Source: a virus
Taxonomy: Duplodnaviria > Caudoviricetes
Length of the DNA stretch: 38,684 nt
Direction: 5' to 3' (one strand)
IMG/VR virus record: IMGVR_UViG_3300029145_000013
Location: 1 to 38,684 of that record
The notes under the pieces are model-generated. The model was given only the letters and a program-made list of their open reading frames with translations. It was not told the DNA's origin and did not search any database. Below, piece after piece: positions 18 to 38,201 of the stretch (positions are counted from its first letter, which is position 1; each line of letters starts with the position of its first letter). Both the position numbers and the translations under genes were made by a program.

Positions 18-96
18 GAGGGTGGCCTGACGTACGCAACACCGCGCATGAACATTTGGAGGTTTGGCAGCAAAACCAGTTGCCGAGGAGTTAAGC

Positions 97-480
97 ATGG
101 CTACAAGCGGGCAAAGACCCAAGCCCAACGCATTAAAATTAGTAACGGGCAATCCAGGCAAGCGCGCACTGGACCCCACAGAAGTAGAAATAAGAGAAAC
201 GCCTTTACTACCCCCAGTTGAATTAGAAGAACGAGCCCAACAGTTATGGGAACAGTTCATTGATTCGGCTTGGTGGCTATCTGAGCATGACGCACCGAAA
301 GCGTATATGTGGGTAAGCCTAGAGGTAGAGTTTGAGAAATGTCCGGCTGGAATGAACTCTGCCAGGATAGGTCAACTAAGAGCCCTTGGGAGCGAGTTAG
401 GGTTTGACCCCTCGGCAAGAGCAAGAATGCCATCTGGATCTCAAAAGGATACAGACCCGGCAGACAAATACTTTGATTGA
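97..480 (+). CDS. terS: Terminase small subunit, P27/HK97-like family
   Basis: GQRPKPNALKLVTGNPGKR N-terminus and ELGFDPSARAR C-terminal motif; ATG at 97 with SD GAGGAG (ORF track starts at 64). Confidence 0.9.
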   Translation: MATSGQRPKPNALKLVTGNPGKRALDPTEVEIRETPLLPPVELEERAQQLWEQFIDSAWWLSEHDAPKAYMWVSLEVEFEKCPAGMNSARIGQLRALGSELGFDPSARARMPSGSQKDTDPADKYFD

Positions 481-2203
481 CCCGTGTACTGATTACGCAC
501 AAAAAGTAGTAGGCGGTGAAATAGTAGCAGGACCCTATGTTCGGGCTGCATGTAAAAGACATTTAGATGACCTAGAGAACGGCCATAAGAGGGGGCTGTC
601 CTGGCATCCTGAAGAAGTTGAGAGGGTTATAGGTTATTTCCGTGAAGTTCTCACGGTAGAGATTGAACGAGAGGAAGACGGAGAAACTATCTCTGAGGCG
701 GTTCCTTTTGATCCTCACCCCTCGCAGTGTTTTATTTTAGGCTCTTTGTTTGGTTGGAGAAACTCCAAGGGCCATAGAAGATTTAGACGTGCTTATATCG
801 AGATTGGCAAGGGAAATGGAAAATCTCCCCTGGCCGCTGGTATAGGCCATTACATGTTATCCGCCACAAAGAAACTAAGGGCGGAAATATACAGTGCAGC
901 CACTGATAAAGATCAGGCGGCGATTTTGTTCAGGGATGCGGTTGAGATGTGGAACCGCTCCCCTGCGCTAGCGAAAAGACTCACCCCTTCAGGTGTCAAT
1001 CCTGTTTGGCAATTAACACATATTCCATCAGCCTCCTTTTTCAAGCCCATTAGCTCGGAGAAGAAGGGTAAGTCTGGAATCAGACCTTATTGCGCCCTAG
1101 TGGATGAAGTCCACGAACATCCTGATAACACCGTTATTGAGATGTTACGGGCGGGCACAAAGGGCAACCAACAAGCTCTTATATTTGAGATCACCAATAG
1201 TGGTTTTGATCGGACTAGCGCCTGTTGGAATGAGCATGAGTACACCGTCAAGGTAGTAACTGGGGAGCTAGAAAACGATTCCTGGTTTGGCTACGTTTGC
1301 GCCCTAGACGAGGGTGACAAGCCATTTGAAGACGAATCTTGCTGGATAAAAGCAAACCCTTTGATGGGCGTTTCTATCCACCCTGAATTCATTAGGGAGC
1401 AGGTCCGAGAAGCCGAAGGGATGCCCTCAAAGGAATCTCTTGTTAAGCGCCTTCACTTTTGCGAATGGCTGGATGGTGCTGAGTCTTGGATTTCTGGAAA
1501 GCTTTGGAGGTCCCGCGAAAGAGTCTTAAACATAAAAGACTTTATTGGGATGGAGTGTTATGGGGGTATCGACCTCTCATATACGAAAGACTTAAGCGCT
1601 TTAGCTATTGTTTTTCCAAAAGACGGGAAGTTCTACGCCTTTGTTTACCTCTGGAAGCCAAAAGAAACTCTAGAGGACGCAGAAAAAGAAGACCGGGTTC
1701 CATACAGGGACTGGGCCAACCAAGGGCATCTAATAACAACGCCAGGGAAGGTTATAAAACTTCCCAAGGTTGCAAGGAAGCTAGGGGAGATCCAAACCAA
1801 ATTTCAATTCCTTGAACTGGCCTATGACAAATACCGCCAGAGGGAACTAGACGAAGACCTTCAAGACGAAGGGATTAGTCTGAATATGATCGAACATCCC
1901 CAGGGCTTTAGAAGAGATAAAAACAGCCCGCTTTGGATGCCAGAGAGTGTGGAAACTCTTGAAAACATGATTACAGAAGGTGAGTTAGTTGTTAATACCA
2001 ACCCTCTTCTTCGTTACAACGTTGCGTCCGCAGTAGTACGGCCAGATCCAGCAGGAACAGACGGCAGAATCTTAGACAAAAGAAAGTCACGCGCACGAAT
2101 TGATGGCGCGGTTGCTTTGGCTATGGGTGTAGGGATAGCAAAGGTCCGGCATGACTCGTCGAAGAGAGTTCTTCCGGTCAACGTGGAGGACATACTGGTT
2201 TGA
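473..2203 (+). CDS. terL: Terminase large subunit, HK97/D3-like (Terminase_1, cos type)
   Basis: RRFRRAYIEIGKGNGKS Walker A, LVDEVHEH Walker B, ITNSG, GGIDLS and RIDGAVA nuclease motifs; probable TTG start at 473 (frame open from 404). Confidence 0.95.
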   Translation: MIDPCTDYAQKVVGGEIVAGPYVRAACKRHLDDLENGHKRGLSWHPEEVERVIGYFREVLTVEIEREEDGETISEAVPFDPHPSQCFILGSLFGWRNSKGHRRFRRAYIEIGKGNGKSPLAAGIGHYMLSATKKLRAEIYSAATDKDQAAILFRDAVEMWNRSPALAKRLTPSGVNPVWQLTHIPSASFFKPISSEKKGKSGIRPYCALVDEVHEHPDNTVIEMLRAGTKGNQQALIFEITNSGFDRTSACWNEHEYTVKVVTGELENDSWFGYVCALDEGDKPFEDESCWIKANPLMGVSIHPEFIREQVREAEGMPSKESLVKRLHFCEWLDGAESWISGKLWRSRERVLNIKDFIGMECYGGIDLSYTKDLSALAIVFPKDGKFYAFVYLWKPKETLEDAEKEDRVPYRDWANQGHLITTPGKVIKLPKVARKLGEIQTKFQFLELAYDKYRQRELDEDLQDEGISLNMIEHPQGFRRDKNSPLWMPESVETLENMITEGELVVNTNPLLRYNVASAVVRPDPAGTDGRILDKRKSRARIDGAVALAMGVGIAKVRHDSSKRVLPVNVEDILV

Positions 2204-2718
2204 TAGAACCCCATCACAAAAGAATAGTGGGAATGCATGTAACCAAGAAGGGGAAGATCGCCCTAGTTTGGTTGGCAATAAATCCTGATTCAAGACATGT
2301 GCATATTTATGACTGCTGCACATTCAACCCAGAAACGCACGAAGCAATGCGAGAGGCGGTGAACACTAGGGGGAGGTTTATACCTTTAGCCTGGAGTCAC
2401 GAAGAATTTGCAAAAGCCCTCGAATCGAAAGGTGTCCGCATCCTTCCAGAAAAAACAAGCGACTCAGACGAAATGGCAGAAGTTGTTTCAAGGGATATAT
2501 GGGAGCGGATCAGAGCCAAAAGAATCACAGCCGACAAAAACCTTAAAGACTGGGCCGAGGAAGCAAAAAGCCTTCAAAGGCTAGACGGGAAAATACCCAG
2601 AGATAGTCATCCCTTAATGTCGGCAACAAGAATCGCAATGCAAGAAATCAAGTCCGCTAGAAGTAATCAGCGAAAACTAGGAAAGAAAAAACATCAACGG
2701 AGGGTAGCAATCGTATGA
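2200..2718 (+). CDS. Stand-alone degenerate P22-type TerL C-terminal RNase H-like domain; putative terminase-portal adaptor
   Basis: HHKRIVGMH..ALVWLAIN..HIYD..RGRFIPLAWSH..W.EE....R.DGKI...HPLMSATRIA follows the P22-like TerL C-domain pattern, with acidic catalytic positions replaced; SD GGAGGA 9 nt before the TTG. Confidence 0.7.
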   Translation: MIEPHHKRIVGMHVTKKGKIALVWLAINPDSRHVHIYDCCTFNPETHEAMREAVNTRGRFIPLAWSHEEFAKALESKGVRILPEKTSDSDEMAEVVSRDIWERIRAKRITADKNLKDWAEEAKSLQRLDGKIPRDSHPLMSATRIAMQEIKSARSNQRKLGKKKHQRRVAIV

Positions 2719-2837
2719 GCATCAAACTAGCTGCGGAAATCGAAGAGCTTAAAAAGCAAATTAAGACGCTTGAAACAAATTACAAAAAACTGGAGAAGCA
2801 ACTCCAGCAAGTAAAGAAAACCAAAGGAACTAAATGA
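2715..2837 (+). CDS. Small 40-aa coiled-coil protein
   Basis: MSIKLAAEIEELKKQIKTLETNYKKLEKQLQQVKKTKGTK; ATGA-coupled to both neighbours; not in ORF track. Confidence 0.65.
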   Translation: MSIKLAAEIEELKKQIKTLETNYKKLEKQLQQVKKTKGTK

Positions 2838-4822
2838 GCCTAACAGATCGTGAAATCCTAGCTATTGTAGATCGTGAATTCACGTCCTCAATGGGTGCGC
2901 CCGATGGTGAAGTATCCGAAGAACGCGCACTAGCCTGGGATTTTTATAACTCCAAGCCATTAGGGAATGAGATCGACGGTAAGTCCAAAGTAGTAACGTC
3001 TGACGTGTCGGATGTTGTAGACGGGATCATGCCTTCCCTTATGCGGATGTTTACGACAAAGGACAACTTAGTCTCATTTGACGCTGTAGGTCCTGAAGAC
3101 GAGCCTTTAGCCGAACAAGAAACTGACTACACCTCTCACGTATTTTTCAAGAAGAACAAGAACTCCTTTCTAACTCTCTATACATGGTTCATGGATTCTT
3201 TAATCCAAAAGAACGGCATTGTTAAGTGCTGGTTTGATGAATCTGAGGAAGTAACCGAGGAGACCTATAAGGGCCTAAGTGAAGCCGATGTTTTTAAGCT
3301 TCTTCAAGATGATGAATTAGAACCCTTAGATCGTGATGAGAGGCTGGAAAAAATATGGGTTGATGGTGTTGAGATTGAGACTACTGTTCACGACATACGA
3401 TTTAAGCGCACTTGCAAGAAAAACTCCATTCGAGTAGTCCCTGTACCCCCGGAAGAGTTCCGAATTTCCTCTGACTCTATCTCTCCCGACCCGAGTGAGG
3501 CCAGAATGGTTGGCCAAGAGCGTGATATTAAACGCTCTGACTTGATTGGTATGGGCTTTGATAAGCAGACAGTCTTAAAACTCCCGGCAGCGGGCAAAAA
3601 CCCAAAATCTACTGAGAAAACTAGAAGAAAAAGTAAAGTAGACGAGACCAGAGAGGGCGGGGCGGAGCATTTAGAGCAAGAAGTCACAGTAAGAGAGTGT
3701 TATTTAAAACTCGATGGTGAGTTAAGACAAGTATTCACCTCTAACGGGCACTTACTCTCTAACGAACCATCAGATAGACAGCCGTTCCACGTTCTATGCT
3801 CAAAACCTCTCCCCCATAAGCATTTTGGTACTTGCCCCGGCGAGATGGTGATGGACATTCAAGAAATCACCACCACTCTGACGCGCCAGATGTTGGACAA
3901 CCTTTACCAAACCAACAATCCAGGACATGCAGTCTACGAGCAGGCTATTGGTGATGACACGATGGACGGACTCCTATCAACAGAGATAGGAAGTATTACT
4001 ATTTTTGATCGACCTGTTGGCGAAGCTTACGCGCCAATGTCAGTTCCGTTTACAGCCGCTTCTACGTTCCCAATGCTGGAATTATGGGACAAAGCTAAGC
4101 GTGATAGAACTGGGGTCCACTCAGACTCAGAAGGCCTTACACCTGACGCCTTAAAGAATATTCAATCCTCTGTTCTCAGAGAAGCTATATCAATGTCTAA
4201 GGACAAGATCGAGATGATCGCTCGAATCTTTGCTGAGACAGGTATCAAGTCTCTCTTTTTACACATTCACGAACTCATTAGAAAGCACCAAGACATTGAA
4301 GAAGTGGTGAAGCTAAGGGGCGAGTGGGTGGAAGTAGACCCAACCTCTTGGAGAGATAGAACAGATATAACAGTCAACATAGGATTGGGTATTGGTTCAA
4401 AGGAGTCAAATCTACTTCATTTAGGACAAATACAACAAGTTCAGTCTGCAATTGAACAGAATGGCGGAAAGAACTTAATTGTCAAGCCCAAAAATATTTA
4501 CAACATGGCCAAGGAAATCGCTAAGAACGCAGGCCAAGAGCCTGACCTGTTCTTTACTGATCCTGGTGACGCCATGTCTCCGCCTTCCTCACAAGAACAA
4601 CAGCAGTTACAGCTCCAAGCACAAATGTTAGGACAGAAGGAAGAGCAACTTAAATCAATGGAAGACAGGATTAATAAAACCCTTCTTCAACATCAGAGAG
4701 AAATGCTCAAGATTGACCAGGCGGACAGCCACCATAACGATGATCTTATGGTGAAACTTGAGGAGCTACAAAACGAAGTCTTAGAACTACAGCTTAAATA
4801 CGAGGAACAGCCAACGGTATGA
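2834..4822 (+). CDS. Portal protein, P22/SU10-like podovirus type
   Basis: 662 aa; GNEIDGKSKVVTSDVSD..MPSLMRMF, KNGIVKCWFD and VPPEEFRIS motifs; Gln-rich C-terminal barrel; position after terminase. Confidence 0.9.
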   Translation: MSLTDREILAIVDREFTSSMGAPDGEVSEERALAWDFYNSKPLGNEIDGKSKVVTSDVSDVVDGIMPSLMRMFTTKDNLVSFDAVGPEDEPLAEQETDYTSHVFFKKNKNSFLTLYTWFMDSLIQKNGIVKCWFDESEEVTEETYKGLSEADVFKLLQDDELEPLDRDERLEKIWVDGVEIETTVHDIRFKRTCKKNSIRVVPVPPEEFRISSDSISPDPSEARMVGQERDIKRSDLIGMGFDKQTVLKLPAAGKNPKSTEKTRRKSKVDETREGGAEHLEQEVTVRECYLKLDGELRQVFTSNGHLLSNEPSDRQPFHVLCSKPLPHKHFGTCPGEMVMDIQEITTTLTRQMLDNLYQTNNPGHAVYEQAIGDDTMDGLLSTEIGSITIFDRPVGEAYAPMSVPFTAASTFPMLELWDKAKRDRTGVHSDSEGLTPDALKNIQSSVLREAISMSKDKIEMIARIFAETGIKSLFLHIHELIRKHQDIEEVVKLRGEWVEVDPTSWRDRTDITVNIGLGIGSKESNLLHLGQIQQVQSAIEQNGGKNLIVKPKNIYNMAKEIAKNAGQEPDLFFTDPGDAMSPPSSQEQQQLQLQAQMLGQKEEQLKSMEDRINKTLLQHQREMLKIDQADSHHNDDLMVKLEELQNEVLELQLKYEEQPTV

Positions 4823-5145: not shown

Positions 5146-6222
5146 ATGTCCGATCAGGAAACCTCAACACCAGAGGCCCCAGCGGAACCTAACTTAGGAT
5201 TGTTAGCCCAGGAGGTTTTTGGTTCAGATTATCACGGAAACGTAGAACCGACAGAAACACCAGAGGAGATTCCGGAACTGGAAGAACCTCAAGAGCCAGT
5301 GGAGACACTGGAAGTTACACCGGAGGAGACCCCGGAAGAAACAATCGAGACGGAAGAAGAAACACCAATATCTTCATTTTCTGAACTCGTAGAGAACCAG
5401 GGCTGGGATCCTGAATGGGCGAACAGCCTTGAAATCCCAGTAAAAGTGGATGGTGAATCATCCTCTGCAACGCTCAGCGACTTAGTGAGGTCATACCAGA
5501 CCCAAGAGGCTGCTGATAAACGGCTCACTGAAGCCAAAGAAAAAGCCAAATCGCAAAACCAAGCATTGGCAACAAAAGAGCAGAATCTGGACGCTCTGAT
5601 TGGAATCGCTGGCTCCTTCTTGGGAAAGCAACAAAAAGCTCTTCAAGAAGAATACGCCGCGCTGGACAAAGACTCTCTTAGAGATACCGACCCCGCCGAG
5701 TGGTCTGCGAAAAAACAAGAACTACAAGATCGCATGACTGCCTTTCAGGGCGAAGTAAATCAATTGGCATCTGTACACCAACAGCAAGCCCAACAAAAAG
5801 AGCAAGAGACTGAACAGCAAAGACAAGAGCGACTTCAAAAAGAACACCAATCTCTCTTAGAGAAGTTGCCCGAATGGGCTGATGTAGAAGTACAGGAAAA
5901 AGAGCAAAAACAACTCCATGAATATCTTTCTGGGTTGGAAATGTCACCTGACTCCTACGCCGCCATAGATTCGGATCACAACCTCTTTTTAATGGTTCGC
6001 AAAGCACGCCTTTTCGACGAGATGGAAAGCAAAGCCGAACCAGCCAAGAAGAAACTGGTCAAGGTCCCCAAAGTTTTAAAACCCGGACCTTCTCAAACGC
6101 CAGTTGACACCAATCAAACCCGGATCAGCGAGTTAGAAACACTCATCAACGAGAATCCTAATCATAGGTATGTAATGAAGTGGTCTACCGAGCTGCATCA
6201 ATTGCGACGAGGTAATAAATAA
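5146..6222 (+). CDS. Capsid scaffolding protein
   Basis: Acidic disordered N-terminus, VKVDGE..TLSDLVRSYQ, DTDPAEW motif, coiled coil; directly upstream of capsid gene. Confidence 0.85.
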   Translation: MSDQETSTPEAPAEPNLGLLAQEVFGSDYHGNVEPTETPEEIPELEEPQEPVETLEVTPEETPEETIETEEETPISSFSELVENQGWDPEWANSLEIPVKVDGESSSATLSDLVRSYQTQEAADKRLTEAKEKAKSQNQALATKEQNLDALIGIAGSFLGKQQKALQEEYAALDKDSLRDTDPAEWSAKKQELQDRMTAFQGEVNQLASVHQQQAQQKEQETEQQRQERLQKEHQSLLEKLPEWADVEVQEKEQKQLHEYLSGLEMSPDSYAAIDSDHNLFLMVRKARLFDEMESKAEPAKKKLVKVPKVLKPGPSQTPVDTNQTRISELETLINENPNHRYVMKWSTELHQLRRGNK

Positions 6223-7169
6223 TGGCGCAACCAAGTAATACTTTTGCCACCAATGATATGGTGGGTATTCGTGAACATCTATCAGACGAAATCTACAATG
6301 TATCTCCTGTAGAAGTTCCTTTTCAATCTTCTGTAGAATTTTCAGAAGCAAACTCAACTAAAGTCGAATGGCAAACTCAATCTCTAGCGGCTGCTGCTGC
6401 TAATGCGGTGATTGAGGGTGATGACGCTACCACTGACGCTGGTAACGCAACTACTCGATTATTCAACTACACGCAGATTTCAGACAAGGTTGCTCGCGTA
6501 ACTGGTACTGGTCGATCTGTAGACGCCGCTGGTCGTGGTGACGAACTAGATCACCAAATGATGCTGAAAGGCCGTGAACTTAAGCGCGACATCGAGAAGA
6601 TTGTTCTTGATAACGATGCTTATGTGGTTGGTAACGACTCTACCGCCCGCGAGTGCGCTGGTGTTCCAACTTGGATCATCACAAACATTGACGAAGCATC
6701 AGATGCAACTACTGCTACTGGTGACGGTTCAGACGCTCACACTGATGGTACAGCACGCGCTTTCACAGAAGATCAATTGAAAACTGTTCTTCGCAAGTGC
6801 TTTGACGAAGGTGGTCAACCTGACACTATCATGGTTGGTGCATTTAACCGCCAAGTGGCTTCTAGCTTCTCATCTGGCCGCACTAACGTTCAAAAGGTTG
6901 AAGATGATGTTCTTCACGCATCTTTCGACATCTATGAGTCTGATTTCGGTCAACTTAAGATCGTTCCTAACCGCTTCCAAGAAGCCCGCACTGCTCTTGT
7001 TCTTGATATGGACAACTGGGGTATGGCGTTCCTTCCTGGTAGAAACATGTCTACTACAGACCTGGCAAAGACTGGTGATACAGATCGCCGTCAAGTGCTT
7101 TCTGAGTACACGGTAATCGCTGGTCAAGAGAAATCTTCTGGCGCGGTTTACGACCTAACTGTCTCTTAA
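6222..7169 (+). CDS. Major capsid protein (DUF5309/SU10-like)
   Basis: GIREHLSDEIYNVSP, EWQTQSL, NYTQIS.K, ELKRDIE, YESDFG, LAKTGD motifs; strong codon bias; followed by a terminator. Confidence 0.92.
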   Translation: MAQPSNTFATNDMVGIREHLSDEIYNVSPVEVPFQSSVEFSEANSTKVEWQTQSLAAAAANAVIEGDDATTDAGNATTRLFNYTQISDKVARVTGTGRSVDAAGRGDELDHQMMLKGRELKRDIEKIVLDNDAYVVGNDSTARECAGVPTWIITNIDEASDATTATGDGSDAHTDGTARAFTEDQLKTVLRKCFDEGGQPDTIMVGAFNRQVASSFSSGRTNVQKVEDDVLHASFDIYESDFGQLKIVPNRFQEARTALVLDMDNWGMAFLPGRNMSTTDLAKTGDTDRRQVLSEYTVIAGQEKSSGAVYDLTVS

Positions 7170-7937: not shown

Positions 7938-8296
7938 AGAAACTAATAGGGCAGGACACGGCGCTAGGTATAACAACGAATACTTGGGTTCACACCGGGG
8001 ATCAGGGACAGAAGCAAGTCACTGTTGAAACGATTCAAGATGCTGAGCCCGTATTCAAAAAAGCCAAACGATTAGCCCAGACCCAAGACAGTAAGTCTAG
8101 TTTTCGGTTTGCGGCTTCTGTCGCTAATAACGTCTTAAACGATGTGACTTATGCGGCGGCAAGAACCTGGGGAGTATCTGTTAAAGACGCCTTTGCGGAA
8201 ATTATGAAAGGCAAAACTGACAGATCCCAGGAAATTTTGAAGATGCTCAAACAAGGGCGTGACTACAGGAAATTCCAAGCGAAGCATTACGCATGA
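7934..8296 (+). CDS. Hypothetical head-completion region protein
   Basis: Coupled ORF (ETIQDAEPV, RFAASV) upstream of adaptor. Confidence 0.6.
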   Translation: MKKLIGQDTALGITTNTWVHTGDQGQKQVTVETIQDAEPVFKKAKRLAQTQDSKSSFRFAASVANNVLNDVTYAAARTWGVSVKDAFAEIMKGKTDRSQEILKMLKQGRDYRKFQAKHYA

Positions 8297-8919
8297 GTCT
8301 AGACACCTATTCCAATCTAAAAACCTCCATAGCGAATCATTTAGACAGAGATGATCTCTCGGATTATATAGATGACTTTATTGATCTCGCAGAAGAGATG
8401 CATAGAGGTCCTGTTGATGAAGGTGGAGTGCGGTGTTTAGAACAAATTTCGCGTGAAAGTTTCACAGTTGACGCAAGACAAAAGGATTTCCCTACGGGTT
8501 ATCTAGAGCCGATCAATTTTAGGCTTTTAACTACTCCTGTTACCGATCTAACGCACGTTAATTATCACGAGCTGAATCGACACAGATCAGAAACAACCGG
8601 GAAGCCGGAATACTACACGATTGGTGGGGAGTTTGAATTCAACAAATCTCCGGACTCTTCCTACTCGGGTGAGATTATCTTCTTCAAAGAAGAAACCGCA
8701 CTCAGTGATTCAAATACAACTAACAATATCCTTACCAATTATCCAAGTCTTTATCTATACGGGGCCTTGGTAGCTACTGCTCCGTTTCTGATGGATGACC
8801 CTCGAATAGTTATCTGGCAGACCCTTTATCAAGCGGGAGCTAACAGAGCTAATGGTAAGAGTAAGAAGGCGAGGAGGGCAAAGCACCTAGTCTCACAACC
8901 TGCTGGAGCTACTCCGTGA
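8293..8919 (+). CDS. Head-tail adaptor (podovirus)
   Basis: TYSNLKTSIANHLDRDDL, GKPEYYTI, YPSLYLYGAL..APFLMDDPRI pattern; synteny. Confidence 0.8.
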   Translation: MSLDTYSNLKTSIANHLDRDDLSDYIDDFIDLAEEMHRGPVDEGGVRCLEQISRESFTVDARQKDFPTGYLEPINFRLLTTPVTDLTHVNYHELNRHRSETTGKPEYYTIGGEFEFNKSPDSSYSGEIIFFKEETALSDSNTTNNILTNYPSLYLYGALVATAPFLMDDPRIVIWQTLYQAGANRANGKSKKARRAKHLVSQPAGATP

Positions 8920-13165: not shown

Positions 13166-14541
13166 TGGCAGAAGTAACGCTGCCCGATGGAACTATAGTT
13201 AAAAACGTACCAGAAGGGATGAGCCCGGAAGACGTGCAACGCGGATTAGAAATTTACCGCAACATGCACAACCCTTTCGCGGGAGCTAGCAAGCCTAACC
13301 ATCCTACTATGTCCGATTTGCAGTCATTTGGGAGAGGAGCTGCTAACAGGGTTGCAAACGCAGCAGCCAATATTCCTGACTTTGTTGCGAACATTGGTGC
13401 AAGAGCAATCACTCCCGCAGTAAGAAGCTTTCAGCCGGGACAGTACGGATCCGAAAAACCTCTAAACACCGCCTGGGCTTTCAACGCTCCTGCATTAGGA
13501 CAAGACTTCGTTCCCGGCCCAGATGGGCACGATTTGCTTGGGGGGGTTCAAAGGGGTGGTGAGCTAGCCTCTGCATTAGTAAACAGAGATTTTGGCCACT
13601 TCTCACAAGACCCCGCACAAGATCAAAGAGAACTAACCCAGAAAGCAATGGAAGAAAACCCTATGGCCTATTTCCTTGGCCAGGTTGGTGGGGATGTTCT
13701 TACGCTTACAACTCTTAGAGCGCCAATCTCAAATAGCAGAGGCAATCAAGAACTAATTTCCAACCAAATTATTGGAGGCGCTCGATCTCCAGGCCCAACA
13801 AATTTTCGGGCGGCAGCAAGACAGGCGGCGGGGGTAAGCAATCAAGAAGTTAGCTTGGCGTCTGGTGTTTCTGATGCGCTCCGATCAATGACCAATACAA
13901 CTAACTGGAGATGGTTAAGAAATAGAGCGGGTAGAGCTGGAGAAACGGGAATGGAGGCTTTAACACTCTCTGCTTTAAACGGAGAGGCGGACCCAATTGA
14001 GGCTTTTGGTTTTGCGGCAGGAATGCAAATGGCCGGAAGTGGTTTTCTTGGCACTTCCGGAAGTTTGTTATCCGGAAACATAAAGGATGCTGGTGTGAAG
14101 CTAGGAATTGCAGCACTAGCAACTGGTTCGATTTTTCAGGTTGCTAAAGAACTCACTGCTGGCGGTCGCGATTTCATTCTCGAATCAATGGAATCTGGTT
14201 TTGGAAAGGTTGCTTTATTCCTTGCGACTGGTGCGCTAGCTGGCGCAACAGGAATGGGAAGAGTAACCCCCATGAATGCGCAACCAGAACGGTTTTCAGC
14301 AAGAGTTGCAGACGCCATTTCATCTCTCCCTCGAGCGGCAACAATTTCGCTTATCACTGAAGGTATGGATGATCCAGCGACTAACGCAGTCATTAGAAAG
14401 CTAGCCGTGAATCCGAGTTATTTCGGCACAAACGCCACACGCAGATTGGAGAGGGCCTACCTAAACGGAAACTTTAGAAATGAACTTGAGTCGCTCATGT
14501 CGGTAGAAGAGTTCAGGAAAAAATTTGAGGCTATTCAGTGA
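13165..14541 (+). CDS. DNA ejection/internal virion protein
   Basis: VTLPDGTIVKNVPEGMS N-terminus, Gly/Ala-rich hydrophobic helices. Confidence 0.65.
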   Translation: MAEVTLPDGTIVKNVPEGMSPEDVQRGLEIYRNMHNPFAGASKPNHPTMSDLQSFGRGAANRVANAAANIPDFVANIGARAITPAVRSFQPGQYGSEKPLNTAWAFNAPALGQDFVPGPDGHDLLGGVQRGGELASALVNRDFGHFSQDPAQDQRELTQKAMEENPMAYFLGQVGGDVLTLTTLRAPISNSRGNQELISNQIIGGARSPGPTNFRAAARQAAGVSNQEVSLASGVSDALRSMTNTTNWRWLRNRAGRAGETGMEALTLSALNGEADPIEAFGFAAGMQMAGSGFLGTSGSLLSGNIKDAGVKLGIAALATGSIFQVAKELTAGGRDFILESMESGFGKVALFLATGALAGATGMGRVTPMNAQPERFSARVADAISSLPRAATISLITEGMDDPATNAVIRKLAVNPSYFGTNATRRLERAYLNGNFRNELESLMSVEEFRKKFEAIQ

Positions 14542-15185
14542 GCGGTAGGAAGTCCAGACTGGTTCCTGCCTTGAACGGCTTTTTCGGTTAAGGCCCTTTC
14601 TACGGACCACCCTCGATCTATTCTTTTGCTGATAGTTTTTCTATCAATTTTGGCTTCCTCAGACCATTGCTGAAGCGTTTGAGACTTGCCAAAAGCAGAA
14701 ATTATTCTGTTGTTTGTCCGATTGTTTTGCTGCTCTTTCATTGTTGCCCAACGACAATTGTCTGGGGAGTAGCCTTTTGAGTTGTCGATCCGGTCCAAGG
14801 TATGTAGTGCTGTCGGTGGCTCGCCCATATCCTTCAGAAAGTTTTCGAAAGAAGTCCAGCGTTTACAAACAGTAACCCCGGCGTATTTCTTTCTTTTATT
14901 TCTGAACTTTAAATTACCCCAGATTATGTAGGCGCGAGATTTATCGCCGCGTTTTGAATGCCCGTGCTTGAGGTTTCTTTCTAAGCAAACCTCTCTACGC
15001 ACTTCAGAATTATAACAACCGCAGGATTTCGATTTTCCTGCTCTTAGCGCGTTAGACCGGACCTCTCCGGTATTCCCGCATTCACACTTGCAAAGCCATA
15101 GAGCGCCACCAGCCCTGGTGCCAATTCTTTTTATGGCTGTCCATCTTCCAAATATTTGACCGCTTATGTCTACGAATTTAGGCAT
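14535..15185 (-). CDS. Free-standing HNH homing endonuclease-like protein, antisense to virion operon
   Basis: FGRWTAI..WLCKCECG..SKSCGC and VCKRW.SFENFLKDMG..TLDRIDNSKGYSPDNCRWAT...QQNN motifs; probable ATG at 15185. Confidence 0.88.
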   Translation of the reverse strand: MPKFVDISGQIFGRWTAIKRIGTRAGGALWLCKCECGNTGEVRSNALRAGKSKSCGCYNSEVRREVCLERNLKHGHSKRGDKSRAYIIWGNLKFRNKRKKYAGVTVCKRWTSFENFLKDMGEPPTALHTLDRIDNSKGYSPDNCRWATMKEQQNNRTNNRIISAFGKSQTLQQWSEEAKIDRKTISKRIDRGWSVERALTEKAVQGRNQSGLPTAH

Positions 15186-15191
15186 GGGTGT

Positions 15192-15220
15192 ATCATAACG
15201 AGGTTTCCAAGAAATGTCAA
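15192..15220 (-). promoter_or_regulatory. Sigma70 promoter for a leaderless HNH transcript
   Basis: Minus strand reads TTGACA-17nt-TATGAT-6nt-ATG. Confidence 0.8.
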
Positions 15221-16536
15221 AAGTAAGCTCATGGAGTACCACTCCGGGTAGCAATAATTCTGCTTCCCCTGACGGATGGCCTGAAGGTCAATCGCCCAGT
15301 TCGGTGAACGACTGCGCAAGAGAAATGATGGCGCAGCTTGCAAGCTGGTACACAGACTTAAAAGGAACCATCACTACAGGTGGTACTACAACAGCCTACA
15401 CCCTAACGACCACACAAGCTCACGCAGCACTAACTGACATTGGTGTATTTGCCTTTCAAATAAACGCAGCTAATACAGGAGCAGCAACTCTAGCTGTAGA
15501 TGGTTTAACGGCTAAGAGCATGAGAATTAATGGTAATGCTCTTGCTTCTGGCGATTTAAGAACCAATGAAATTGTTTTGGCCGTATACAACCCTGACACA
15601 GATGTCTTTGATCTTTTTAAATCATCAAGTTTTACCGATGCAGACCACACAAAACTCGACGGCATAGAAGCTAGCGCAGATGTAACAGACACCGCAAATG
15701 TAACCGCTGCTGGAGCCTTAATGGATTCTGAGCTAACCGATATTGCAGCGGTTAAGGCTTTGAACCAGGGTGTAGCCACTACTGACACCCCTTCTTTTGC
15801 TCAAGTTACAGTAGACAACATTACTGTTAATGGCGCTGCTATAACTTCTGATACGGGTGCTATTTCCTTTGGAAACGAAAATCTAACCACCACAGGCACT
15901 CTTGCTGCTGGTGCTACTACGATTACTGGTAACAGTTCAGTAACAGGTACTCTAGACGTATCTGGTGATGTGGACGTTGGCGATGGAACCTCTGCAGGTG
16001 TGGCGCTGGCAATTAACGGTTCCGCCACAGGCAATCCGATTCTTCAGCTTGAGCAAGCCGGAACGATTAAGGCATTTCTACAATACGCTGACTCTGGAGA
16101 CATACTATCTCTGGTTTCAGACGGCGAGGTAAGAATAAACCCTAACAACTCCGCAGCATTAATCCTGGACACATCTGGTGATGCTACCTTTGCTGGGGAT
16201 ATTGATTTATCTTCAGGTTTTCTAAACGTAGGTCCTGCTGACACACTGACAATCTCAGCAGGGGTCGTAACAGCCACCAAATACTACAGTTCTGTTGACA
16301 CAGAATCTGCTGCATCAACAGATGATTTGGATACTATAAATGGGGGCTCGGATGGTGACCTTCTCATTATAAGAGCAACAAACTCTGGAAGGACTGTAGT
16401 TGCTAAACACGGGACAGGGAATCTCCATTTGGACGGGGCGGCAGACTTCACGATGGATAACTCAGATGATCGACTCTATTTAATGAGTAACGGAACAAAC
16501 TGGATCGAGATAAGCAGGAGTAATAACGCAACATGA
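15214..16536 (+). CDS. Tail fibre/spike protein
   Basis: WSTTPGSN..WPEGQSPSSVNDCAREMMA anchor, KLDGIEASADVTD segment, beta-rich C-terminal domain. Confidence 0.85.
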   Translation: MSKVSSWSTTPGSNNSASPDGWPEGQSPSSVNDCAREMMAQLASWYTDLKGTITTGGTTTAYTLTTTQAHAALTDIGVFAFQINAANTGAATLAVDGLTAKSMRINGNALASGDLRTNEIVLAVYNPDTDVFDLFKSSSFTDADHTKLDGIEASADVTDTANVTAAGALMDSELTDIAAVKALNQGVATTDTPSFAQVTVDNITVNGAAITSDTGAISFGNENLTTTGTLAAGATTITGNSSVTGTLDVSGDVDVGDGTSAGVALAINGSATGNPILQLEQAGTIKAFLQYADSGDILSLVSDGEVRINPNNSAALILDTSGDATFAGDIDLSSGFLNVGPADTLTISAGVVTATKYYSSVDTESAASTDDLDTINGGSDGDLLIIRATNSGRTVVAKHGTGNLHLDGAADFTMDNSDDRLYLMSNGTNWIEISRSNNAT

Positions 16537-21842: not shown

Positions 21843-22676
21843 TTAAGCGGCTACATCCCCGAAAGGTTCGCAAGATTCACTACAGCCGCCGCTCTCATCA
21901 TTAAACATGCGTAATTGCACTTCACCAGTAGTGGCAATCACTTGGTATTCATTAAATAAGTCTTCCGTCGATCTGTTCCCCCTAAAAAATACTCGCTTGT
22001 TCCCGTCAACATTGTATCCCGCAAGGCCGTACAGGCTCTCCATCTGCCGGGGAAATTCAAAAATGTGCGGCATTGTCTCGATTAGCATCATGTGTTTTCT
22101 GATAGACTTCTTCCAGCACCAGGAGCAGTTGCCCTCATGCTCTAGCAAGTTCAAATTGAATGGCATGGACTCCCAGAAGTCATTTACATGGGCCTTGTCG
22201 ATGCCCCAATCGTTGAGCGGATAAATGAATTTCGGGTCGCCGCCAATCCTGCGCGGCTCATCCGATCTAATTCCAATTGCCATTACACAATCAGACCACC
22301 CAATTGAGTCTGCGTAGCTTTTTATTGGGTTGGCTTTTAGTTCCCTGGTGCAGTGCGGGTAGGCATGATTAGGAATTCCGTATTTCTTTATAACCTCTTC
22401 AAATGGTTCACCCTTCCTGCTGGCGTTTTCCCACTCAACCACTCTATGCGTTGATCCTTTGCGCTTTCCATGGTGTACCTCCGCCTCAACCCAGACAACG
22501 CCAAGACCAAAATATTCATCTACTCTACGAACGAAATTCAGAGTCTCTGGGCGCTCCTGCCCAGTATTTGCAAATACAAATTTGAGATTACGGTCAGCCC
22601 AGCGCTCTTTAATCAAGTGCGCCATGTATGCAGAGGTTTTGCCACCACTGAAGCTGATTAGTATTTTTTCACTCAT
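21843..22676 (-). CDS. PAPS reductase-like / adenine nucleotide alpha-hydrolase family protein
   Basis: ISFSGGKTS PP-loop, VFANTGQE, CTRELK, IGIRSDE, GNCSWCWKK. Confidence 0.88.
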   Translation of the reverse strand: MSEKILISFSGGKTSAYMAHLIKERWADRNLKFVFANTGQERPETLNFVRRVDEYFGLGVVWVEAEVHHGKRKGSTHRVVEWENASRKGEPFEEVIKKYGIPNHAYPHCTRELKANPIKSYADSIGWSDCVMAIGIRSDEPRRIGGDPKFIYPLNDWGIDKAHVNDFWESMPFNLNLLEHEGNCSWCWKKSIRKHMMLIETMPHIFEFPRQMESLYGLAGYNVDGNKRVFFRGNRSTEDLFNEYQVIATTGEVQLRMFNDESGGCSESCEPFGDVAA

Positions 22677-37826: not shown

Positions 37827-38029
37827 GCAAAGGATCAGGGCGGCGACCAACACTCATCTCGCAAAAGGAAGCTGATGACAACTGGAGGGCAGCCTTCGGG
37901 CCGTCAAGACTGGAACGAATGGTACAAGACCAGGCGCTGGAAGAAGCTAAGAAAGAGACATCTAAAGAAACAACCCCTGTGCCAGATGTGCCTACAGCTA
38001 AAGAAGCACACCTTAGCGACTGTAGTTGA
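37823..38029 (+). CDS. Small phage protein (KGSxRRP..NW..F type)
   Basis: ATGA-coupled; overlaps the HNH gene. Confidence 0.45.
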   Translation: MSKGSGRRPTLISQKEADDNWRAAFGPSRLERMVQDQALEEAKKETSKETTPVPDVPTAKEAHLSDCS

Positions 38030-38201
38030 CCACATCACCCCTCACAAGGGAGACACTAAGCTCTTTTGGAACCCAAAAAACCTACAGTCATTGTGTAAAC
38101 ACTGCCATGACTCTCACAAAGCAAAGAAAGAGAAGAGCGGCTACTTACCCGGATGTGATGGAGACGGCAACCCATTGGACCCTGACCATCCTTGGAACTA
38201 G
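37875..38201 (+). CDS. Terminase-associated HNH endonuclease (HK97 gp74-like)
   Basis: WYKTRRWKKLR..PLCQMC..VVDHITPHKG..LFW..NLQSLCKHCH; next to the genome end. Confidence 0.9.
   Translation: MTTGGQPSGRQDWNEWYKTRRWKKLRKRHLKKQPLCQMCLQLKKHTLATVVDHITPHKGDTKLFWNPKNLQSLCKHCHDSHKAKKEKSGYLPGCDGDGNPLDPDHPWN

Follow-up and report, generated by a model that had tools for sequence, protein, structure and literature searches.

The stretch of DNA analysed here (the window, 38,684 nucleotides) comprises the whole of IMG/VR virus record IMGVR_UViG_3300029145_000013, a member of the Caudoviricetes. The record (38.7 kb) is rated complete and is present in four aquatic metagenome runs of a single study. Its packaging region begins with the small terminase subunit (TerS), followed by the large subunit (TerL), a short gene that is the subject of this analysis and is called the orphan below, a coiled-coil open reading frame (ORF), the portal, the scaffold and the capsid (Table 1). 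The orphan is a separate ORF with no ATPase domain attached, and its TTG start overlaps the stop of TerL as TTGA. The initial annotation had noticed its own Shine-Dalgarno sequence, GGAGGA, 9 nucleotides upstream of the start, and the motifs GMH and HPLMSATRIA; all of these are seen in the sequence. Contigs from runs X2, X3 and X4, of which X2 is possibly the sample that yielded the record, bridge TerL, orphan and portal, which makes an assembly chimera unlikely. A depth step occurs near position 2420 in run X1.

Table 1. Positions and supporting evidence for the features discussed
Feature	Position	Strand	Evidence or remark
Orphan, stand-alone P22-type terminase nuclease domain without catalytic acids, 172 amino acids (aa); proposed third terminase subunit	2200..2718	+	
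Shine-Dalgarno GGAGGA of orphan, within TerL tail codons	2185..2190	+	sequence
Basic C-terminal tail of orphan ending VAIV; predicted portal-binding element	2656..2715	+	family tail pattern and charge
Complete cos-type TerL, 576 aa, TTG start	473..2203	+	Pfam TerL_ATPase and TerL_nuclease; phrog_9 E 8e-143
TerL C-terminal tail RVLPVNVEDILV; predicted docking peptide	2165..2200	+	P22-linker profile match
SU10-family portal, 662 aa	2834..4822	+	PF23899 (SU10_portal) E 2.5e-172
Coiled-coil ORF, 40 aa	2715..2837	+	coupled to both orphan and portal
TerS, 127 aa	97..480	+	phrog_83 E 1.7e-16
HNH protein	37875..38201	+	PF01844, phrog_2323 E 2e-37; upstream of terS across genome ends
Scaffolding protein	5146..6222	+	phrog_3927 E 4.8e-28
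SU10-family major capsid protein	6222..7169	+	PF17236 (SU10_MCP) E 1.4e-90
SU10-type head-tail adaptor	8293..8919	+	PF24175 (SU10_adaptor) E 4.9e-21
Probable left end of the genome (terminus of cos type), immediately before terS	18..60	+	clustering of relatives' contig ends; exact cut site putative
Library tag, non-phage DNA	1..17	.	exact reverse complement closes contig at 38668-38684

Scans with the orphan as a single sequence matched no family. A profile built from its 20 close relatives (161-191 aa, 44-65% identity) matches the nuclease domain of P22 TerL (PDB 4DKW, E 2e-5), and 4DKW is also the best match of the AlphaFold model of the orphan (pLDDT 80.6, Foldseek E 1.7e-7). The model aligns with 4DKW over 159 residues (Z 17.9, rmsd 2.8) and covers only 309-482. 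The P22-type nuclease fold that had been proposed for this gene is thus recovered by both approaches. The distant relatives comprise 602 representatives at E <=0.001 (the best 150 of the 602 are listed). In 32 of the 80 viral loci found by the profile the domain has a gene of its own ahead of an SU10-family portal, whereas in 48 it is the C-terminal part of a longer ORF; the longer ORFs are mostly full P22-type TerLs, with Pfam 6N and 6C on those examined.

Aspartate D321 is reported to be critical in the P22 terminase nuclease (PMC11728703), and by the numbering of 4DKW it is the aspartate of GxDFG. The window orphan has H in place of D321 and HP in place of the DD pair. The equivalent of D321 is gone in 98 of 105 distinct short sequences and kept in 90 of 92 long ones, so that the loss of catalytic acids first noticed in the window extends across the dead-domain family. 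Seven short sequences keep this residue; six of them have all motifs intact and are probably contig fragments of full TerLs, and P0064 lacks the DD pair. The domain is read as inactive because no acidic replacement site is conserved at the catalytic columns in the family. By fold and sequence, the orphan is the part of an ancestral P22-type terminase that comprised the nuclease domain and the tail; it has lost the catalytic residues and is predicted to be inactive. The gene is nevertheless full length, with an open frame, in members down to approximately 25-30% identity. In all 351 of 351 orphan pairs from 27 loci pN is lower than pS, and the comparison between the window and L001 (dN 0.31, dS 2.4) gives a ratio of about 0.13, a rough value with dS near saturation; both results point to purifying selection.

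TerL itself is complete, and its own nuclease motifs, GIDLS and RIDG, are present. It ends in a motif common to the TerLs adjacent to an orphan, for example RVLPVNVEDILV, KVFPVDLEGIAV and LVFPVEEEDILE. In intact P22-type TerLs the linker between ATPase and nuclease, GSGR[IV]FP[IV]xExxI, stands directly before the nuclease domain. When a profile of 42 P22-type linkers was scored against whole TerL proteins, the tail was the top window in 19 of 25 orphan-adjacent TerLs compared with 0 of 15 close controls, with medians of 9.6 and -8.3 bits respectively. None of 59 further control tails exceeded 0.9 bits, and one ranked first, at 0.4 bits. On this evidence the last 12 residues of the window TerL are left over from the linker that joined ATPase and nuclease in the ancestral P22-type terminase. 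The P22 crystal construct 4DKW starts at the linker, which is an ordered part of the nuclease domain. A model of the linker and dead domain of P0103, a fused form described below, has a pLDDT of 97 at residues 11-20 and aligns with 289-482 of 4DKW (Z 27.2). Because this stretch covers 289-482 and the orphan covers 309-482, the orphan is without a piece that is ordered in P22, and TerL carries part of it. We infer that the TerL tail re-docks on the dead domain. Five stand-alone dead domains (P0072, P0074, P0077, P0079 and P0107) have an N-terminal extension of 20-30 aa that is unlike the linker.

The dead domain occurs together with one clade of portals. Portal searches gave 37 distinct contigs with at least 43% identity, of which 5 are without upstream DNA and the other 32 of 32 carry the dead domain, although the portal alignment in two of the searches was drawn mostly from orphan-bearing loci and may favour the clade. 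The gene is thus never missing in loci of this clade that have upstream DNA. TerL is visible in 28 of the orphan loci found by portal and is of cos type in all 28; in L119, L279 and L283 no TerL is visible (other genes lie upstream and the contigs end), which is neither for nor against the association. Portals with less than 40% identity, referred to here as the outgroup, are accompanied by Terminase_3, a 420-aa type or intact P22-type TerLs, and the dead domain is absent. The outgroup layout is a single TerL of pac or direct-terminal-repeat (DTR) type directly before the portal, whereas here a cos-type TerL and the orphan occupy that place. The nearest relatives of the window TerL, 51-70% identical, lack the dead domain and adjoin genes for an HK97-type portal, protease or capsid. 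Another 65 loci with a cos-type TerL and 2 kb of downstream sequence were also examined, and the domain was found in 0 of 65. The orphan adjoins TerL in 30 of 46 distinct genes and is not adjacent to it in 16. Unrelated genes are often inserted between the two (L012, L019, L021, L026, L030, L181, L279 and L283); they include endolysin-like and laminin G genes as well as unassigned ones.

The TerL body has a different history from that of its neighbours. The window TerL is 74% identical to that of L025 and about 30% identical to those of L001 and L003, yet L001 and L003 have the closest relatives of the window orphan (65 and 60%) and of the window portal (77 and 76%). In a tree of 47 TerL bodies, a quick version in which L031 is on a long branch, the TerLs that accompany an orphan are spread over three separate lineages, with TerLs of HK97-headed phages interspersed between them, and the starred branches force at least four label changes. 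Orphan distances correlate better with the portal (Mantel r 0.78) than with the TerL body (0.52). These comparisons support a repeated exchange of TerL between orphan-bearing and HK97-headed phages. Both the tree and the old linker at the end of TerL back the proposal that the original terminase had been replaced. The TerL-orphan arrangement, with a TerL of the window's lineage, is also present in a 5.5-Mb Pseudomonadales chromosome (L185:2603-4968); this is probably a prophage and is the best host hint found. Portal matches in cultured phages are at most 35% identical (best 40 of 293), and the arrangement was not found there, the orphan matches being only annotated TerLs or unannotated records (among 25 of 56).

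The C-terminal tail of the orphan is predicted to bind the portal. Of 98 dead domains, 83 end in a hydrophobic-x-hydrophobic-hydrophobic-like pattern, and the median net charge of the last 25 aa is +5. P22 TerL without residues 483-499 is reported to fail to bind the procapsid form of the portal (PMC5290284), and portal binding by the C-terminus is reported for T3, lambda, SPP1 and P22 in a 2026 review (PMC13595956). The outgroup loci L125-L179, whose portals are of the SU10 family, have a common TerL tail, such as WGKSINVxPKWVV or W[IV]V, in at least three TerL families, and the conserved hydrophobic C-terminus of the orphan resembles these tails. The portals of L173 and L176 are 97% identical and their TerL families differ, but the DNA is near-identical from about 14 codons before the stop. 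Similarly, L003 and L006 have portals that are 99% identical and orphans that are 56% identical, and the orphans are identical from 8 codons before the stop. Both cases fit a tail that is matched to the portal.

Taken together, the orphan is likely to serve as a third subunit of the terminase, connecting the SU10-family portal of the phage itself with a cos-type motor acquired by exchange; this adaptor role, already put forward in the initial annotation, is one that we infer. None of the three outcomes that the initial annotation named as refuting its proposal was seen: the fold is that of a TerL nuclease, the catalytic acids are lost, and the gene is under purifying selection and present in every portal-clade locus that has upstream DNA. 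A possible history begins with a cos-type TerL grafted onto the old gene at the ATPase-nuclease linker, after which the old nuclease would have lost its catalytic acids and a stop-start overlap would have divided the fused gene within the linker, about 12 residues from its beginning. The TerL tail would then occupy on the dead domain the position taken by the linker in the structure from P22, and the basic tail of the orphan would bind the portal clip as the P22 tail does, with TerS, TerL and HNH cutting cos and pumping the DNA. Because both interfaces would be short peptides, the TerL body could be exchanged with HK97-headed phages. This working scheme, with cutting and pumping by TerS, TerL and HNH, one contact between the TerL tail and the dead domain and a second between the dead-domain tail and the portal, seems on balance probable. 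A more far-reaching version is somewhat less likely than not: that this clade of temperate aquatic podoviruses has a true three-subunit terminase, with a ring of dead nuclease between motor and portal that is bound to the motor by split-protein complementation through the 12-residue tail, and that the ring is a universal socket for several unrelated cos motors on one podoviral head, which would have turned a headful packager into a cos packager.

Natural fusions bear on this history. P0103 consists of a phrog_38 TerL, the linker and a dead P22-type domain in one chain, and P0170 of a Terminase_3 TerL followed by a dead domain, also in one chain. The two fusions likely arose independently, and they show the fusion stage required by the split model, though without a cos-type TerL. 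When 7,993 candidates for longer fused forms were scored, one P22-type TerL of 491 aa was returned, which is weak evidence of absence. Matches of 740-850 aa were rejected as fusions; they are mostly P22-type TerLs, several with intein or homing-endonuclease matches. Inteins or homing endonucleases occur frequently in the TerLs of these loci, whether of cos type or of P22 type (L020, L068, P0085-P0155).

Several observations weigh against the bridging role. No in-frame fusion of a cos-type TerL and a dead domain was found in the fused-form search or among the portal-clade loci. Six of the 25 orphan-adjacent tails are not top-ranked by the linker profile, and those of L019 and L032 score below -10 bits. 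The Shine-Dalgarno sequence within the TerL tail could account for part of the conservation of the tail; it is not the whole reason, because the linker motif is kept on TerL where genes lie between TerL and the orphan (L012, L021 and L024). On the portal side, the distances of the orphan tail track the portal weakly (r 0.19), the body of the orphan tolerates large change beside one portal (the 56% identity of L003 and L006), and SU10 portals take other motors with a grafted tail alone, as in L173 and L176. The adjacency of the genes would by itself raise the correlation between orphan and portal, and the loci are related, so that the counts are not independent. The outgroup SU10-family portals pair with three other TerL types and have no extra domain, which means that an adaptor is not required for every swap. 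Among cos phages, no solved precedent for an extra ring between motor and portal was found.

Other explanations of the dead domain have to be set beside this one. The domain might act at the portal only, binding the portal or procapsid as a spacer, DNA grip, portal chaperone or gate, with TerL docking alone. Where other genes have entered behind TerL, the orphan is still found beside the portal, and its distances follow the portal, and the dead terminase nuclease of phi29 is reported to retain DNA binding (PMC7672431). A portal factor of this kind leaves unexplained why the old linker is found as a tail in separate TerL lineages, even with intervening genes, and why the close TerL relatives with HK97 heads are without it; we consider this reading unlikely. 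Alternatively, the orphan might be a regulator on the terminase side that attaches to the tail of TerL and promotes or limits cleavage at cos, with DNA binding through its basic tail and no contact with the portal. Both the basic tail and the linker remnant on TerL would suit this role, as would the stop-start coupling to TerL in most loci. The closest TerL relatives manage without the orphan under an HK97-type head, so that the need for the orphan comes with the portal type, and the resemblance of its C-terminus to the TerL tails of other SU10-portal phages is also out of place in a regulator; this role seems quite unlikely.

A ribosomal frameshift or readthrough might also join TerL and orphan into a protein resembling P0103 and P0170, given that overlaps of the form TTGA, ATGA or GTGA occur at many loci and that natural fusions are known with other TerL types. 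The orphan has its own Shine-Dalgarno sequence, no common slippery sequence was seen by eye at the junctions, and whole genes intervene in the 16 of 46 cases mentioned above, which makes a translational fusion highly improbable. That the orphan has no function, being either left behind by a recent exchange of terminases or one half of a gene that broke apart, is hardly credible. Its catalytic residues are gone and the arrangement is absent from the cultured phage records considered, but the low ratio of dN to dS, the open frame across diverged members, the presence in every portal-clade locus with upstream DNA and the complete TerL upstream all speak for a maintained gene, and the relic reading appears largely refuted by the selection data.

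The remaining genes agree in part with the cos packaging set, the P27-type TerS and the P22/SU10-like head described in the initial annotation. The TerL assignment stands, with phrog_9 and both Pfam domains, and the HNH gene is present but at the other contig end; relatives of this gene precede terS in L005, L017, L023 and L024. The P27 label of TerS is weak: phrog_83 is matched, yet Terminase_4 and TIGR01558 are below cut-off (20 bits for TIGR01558, cut-off 45.6). TerS is 49-64% identical to the TerS of L025, L081, L082 and L087. As regards the head, the SU10 families hold and P22 proper does not, the P22_portal match of the portal being only E 0.003. Family scans of the window head genes matched SU10 families and a scaffold, and found neither a portal of HK97 type nor a prohead protease. 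A small ORF comparable to the coiled-coil ORF follows the terminase gene in L003 and L006 and in the outgroup loci L173 and L176. The phage looks temperate from its integrase, repressor-like gene, Erf, SSB, NinB and NinG. A gene similar to phosphoadenosine phosphosulfate reductase (phrog_424) lies among the early genes at 21843-22676, and a free-standing HNH endonuclease lies on the minus strand at 14535-15254 within the tail gene region.

The contig starts about 80 bases upstream of terS and ends downstream of the HNH gene. Contigs end 380-650 bases upstream of the TerL start in 17 of 31 cases in the clade compared with 6 of 32 for other TerL types (Fisher p 0.003), a comparison that covers contigs whose end is no more than 2.4 kb from the start of TerL and counts some near-duplicates. 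Of 18 clade rows selected by hand, 8 (7 contigs) have their end 11-12 bases before the motif [AC]TAAAC, which was picked after the sequences had been seen. The clustering and the shared offset fit putative defined ends of cos type upstream of terS. An inverted terminal repeat at the contig ends was rejected, as the exact inverted tag of 17 bases is a library artefact. The same tag opens L013 and L117 and occurs in loose ends of the runs; we take it to be a random-amplification primer.

Phage terminases are described as two-subunit enzymes. The orphan is like the nuclease domain of P22 gp2 (PDB 4DKW; PMC5290284, PMC11728703) in fold and has homologous sequence, and its basic tail sits where the reported portal-binding residues 483-499 of P22 sit. 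It differs in having no ATPase, in the replacement of D321 and the DD pair, in a shortened HD loop and in the absence of the first 20 residues, the linker, which are found instead on the C-terminus of another gene. By analogy, it may work like the docking end of P22 gp2, yet it stands outside the active family. The nearest parallel in the published accounts drawn on here is the vestigial nuclease of phi29 gp16 (PMC7672431), likewise an inactive terminase nuclease fold kept in a packaging motor. In phi29, as described there, the domain belongs in cis to the motor itself, an active nuclease is absent and the prohead is connected through pRNA, whereas the orphan is a separate protein beside a TerL with an intact nuclease. 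The HK97/P27-type cos terminase with an HNH helper, as reported in PMC10359639, resembles the window in TerS, phrog_9 TerL, HNH and signs of defined ends; the window differs in its SU10-family head with scaffold and without a detected HK97 portal or prohead protease, and in a TerL tail replaced by a remnant of a P22-type linker. The tripartite terminase of herpesviruses, pUL15/pUL28/pUL33, also has a third subunit in a machine that packages unit lengths, but the partner of pUL33 is reported to be the subunit that resembles TerS, and pUL33 to be required for cleavage (PMC13595956), and no homology to the orphan is proposed. P0103 and P0170 are like the window in that an intact foreign TerL precedes a dead nuclease domain whose lineage is a different one; they are single chains with other TerL families, whereas the window has two genes and the linker was left on TerL.

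No published description of the arrangement of cos-type TerL, dead domain and SU10 portal was found in the open-licence papers searched. What appears to be new is that the last 12 residues of the window TerL are the old P22-type linker, and that this linker marks most of the TerLs that stand beside a dead domain. In this clade the type of terminase is no predictor of the type of head. If the proposed role of the orphan is true, a small and separate portal-docking module would ease the study of the interface between motor and portal without the flexible ATPase, and the arrangement would show how phages change their packaging strategy.

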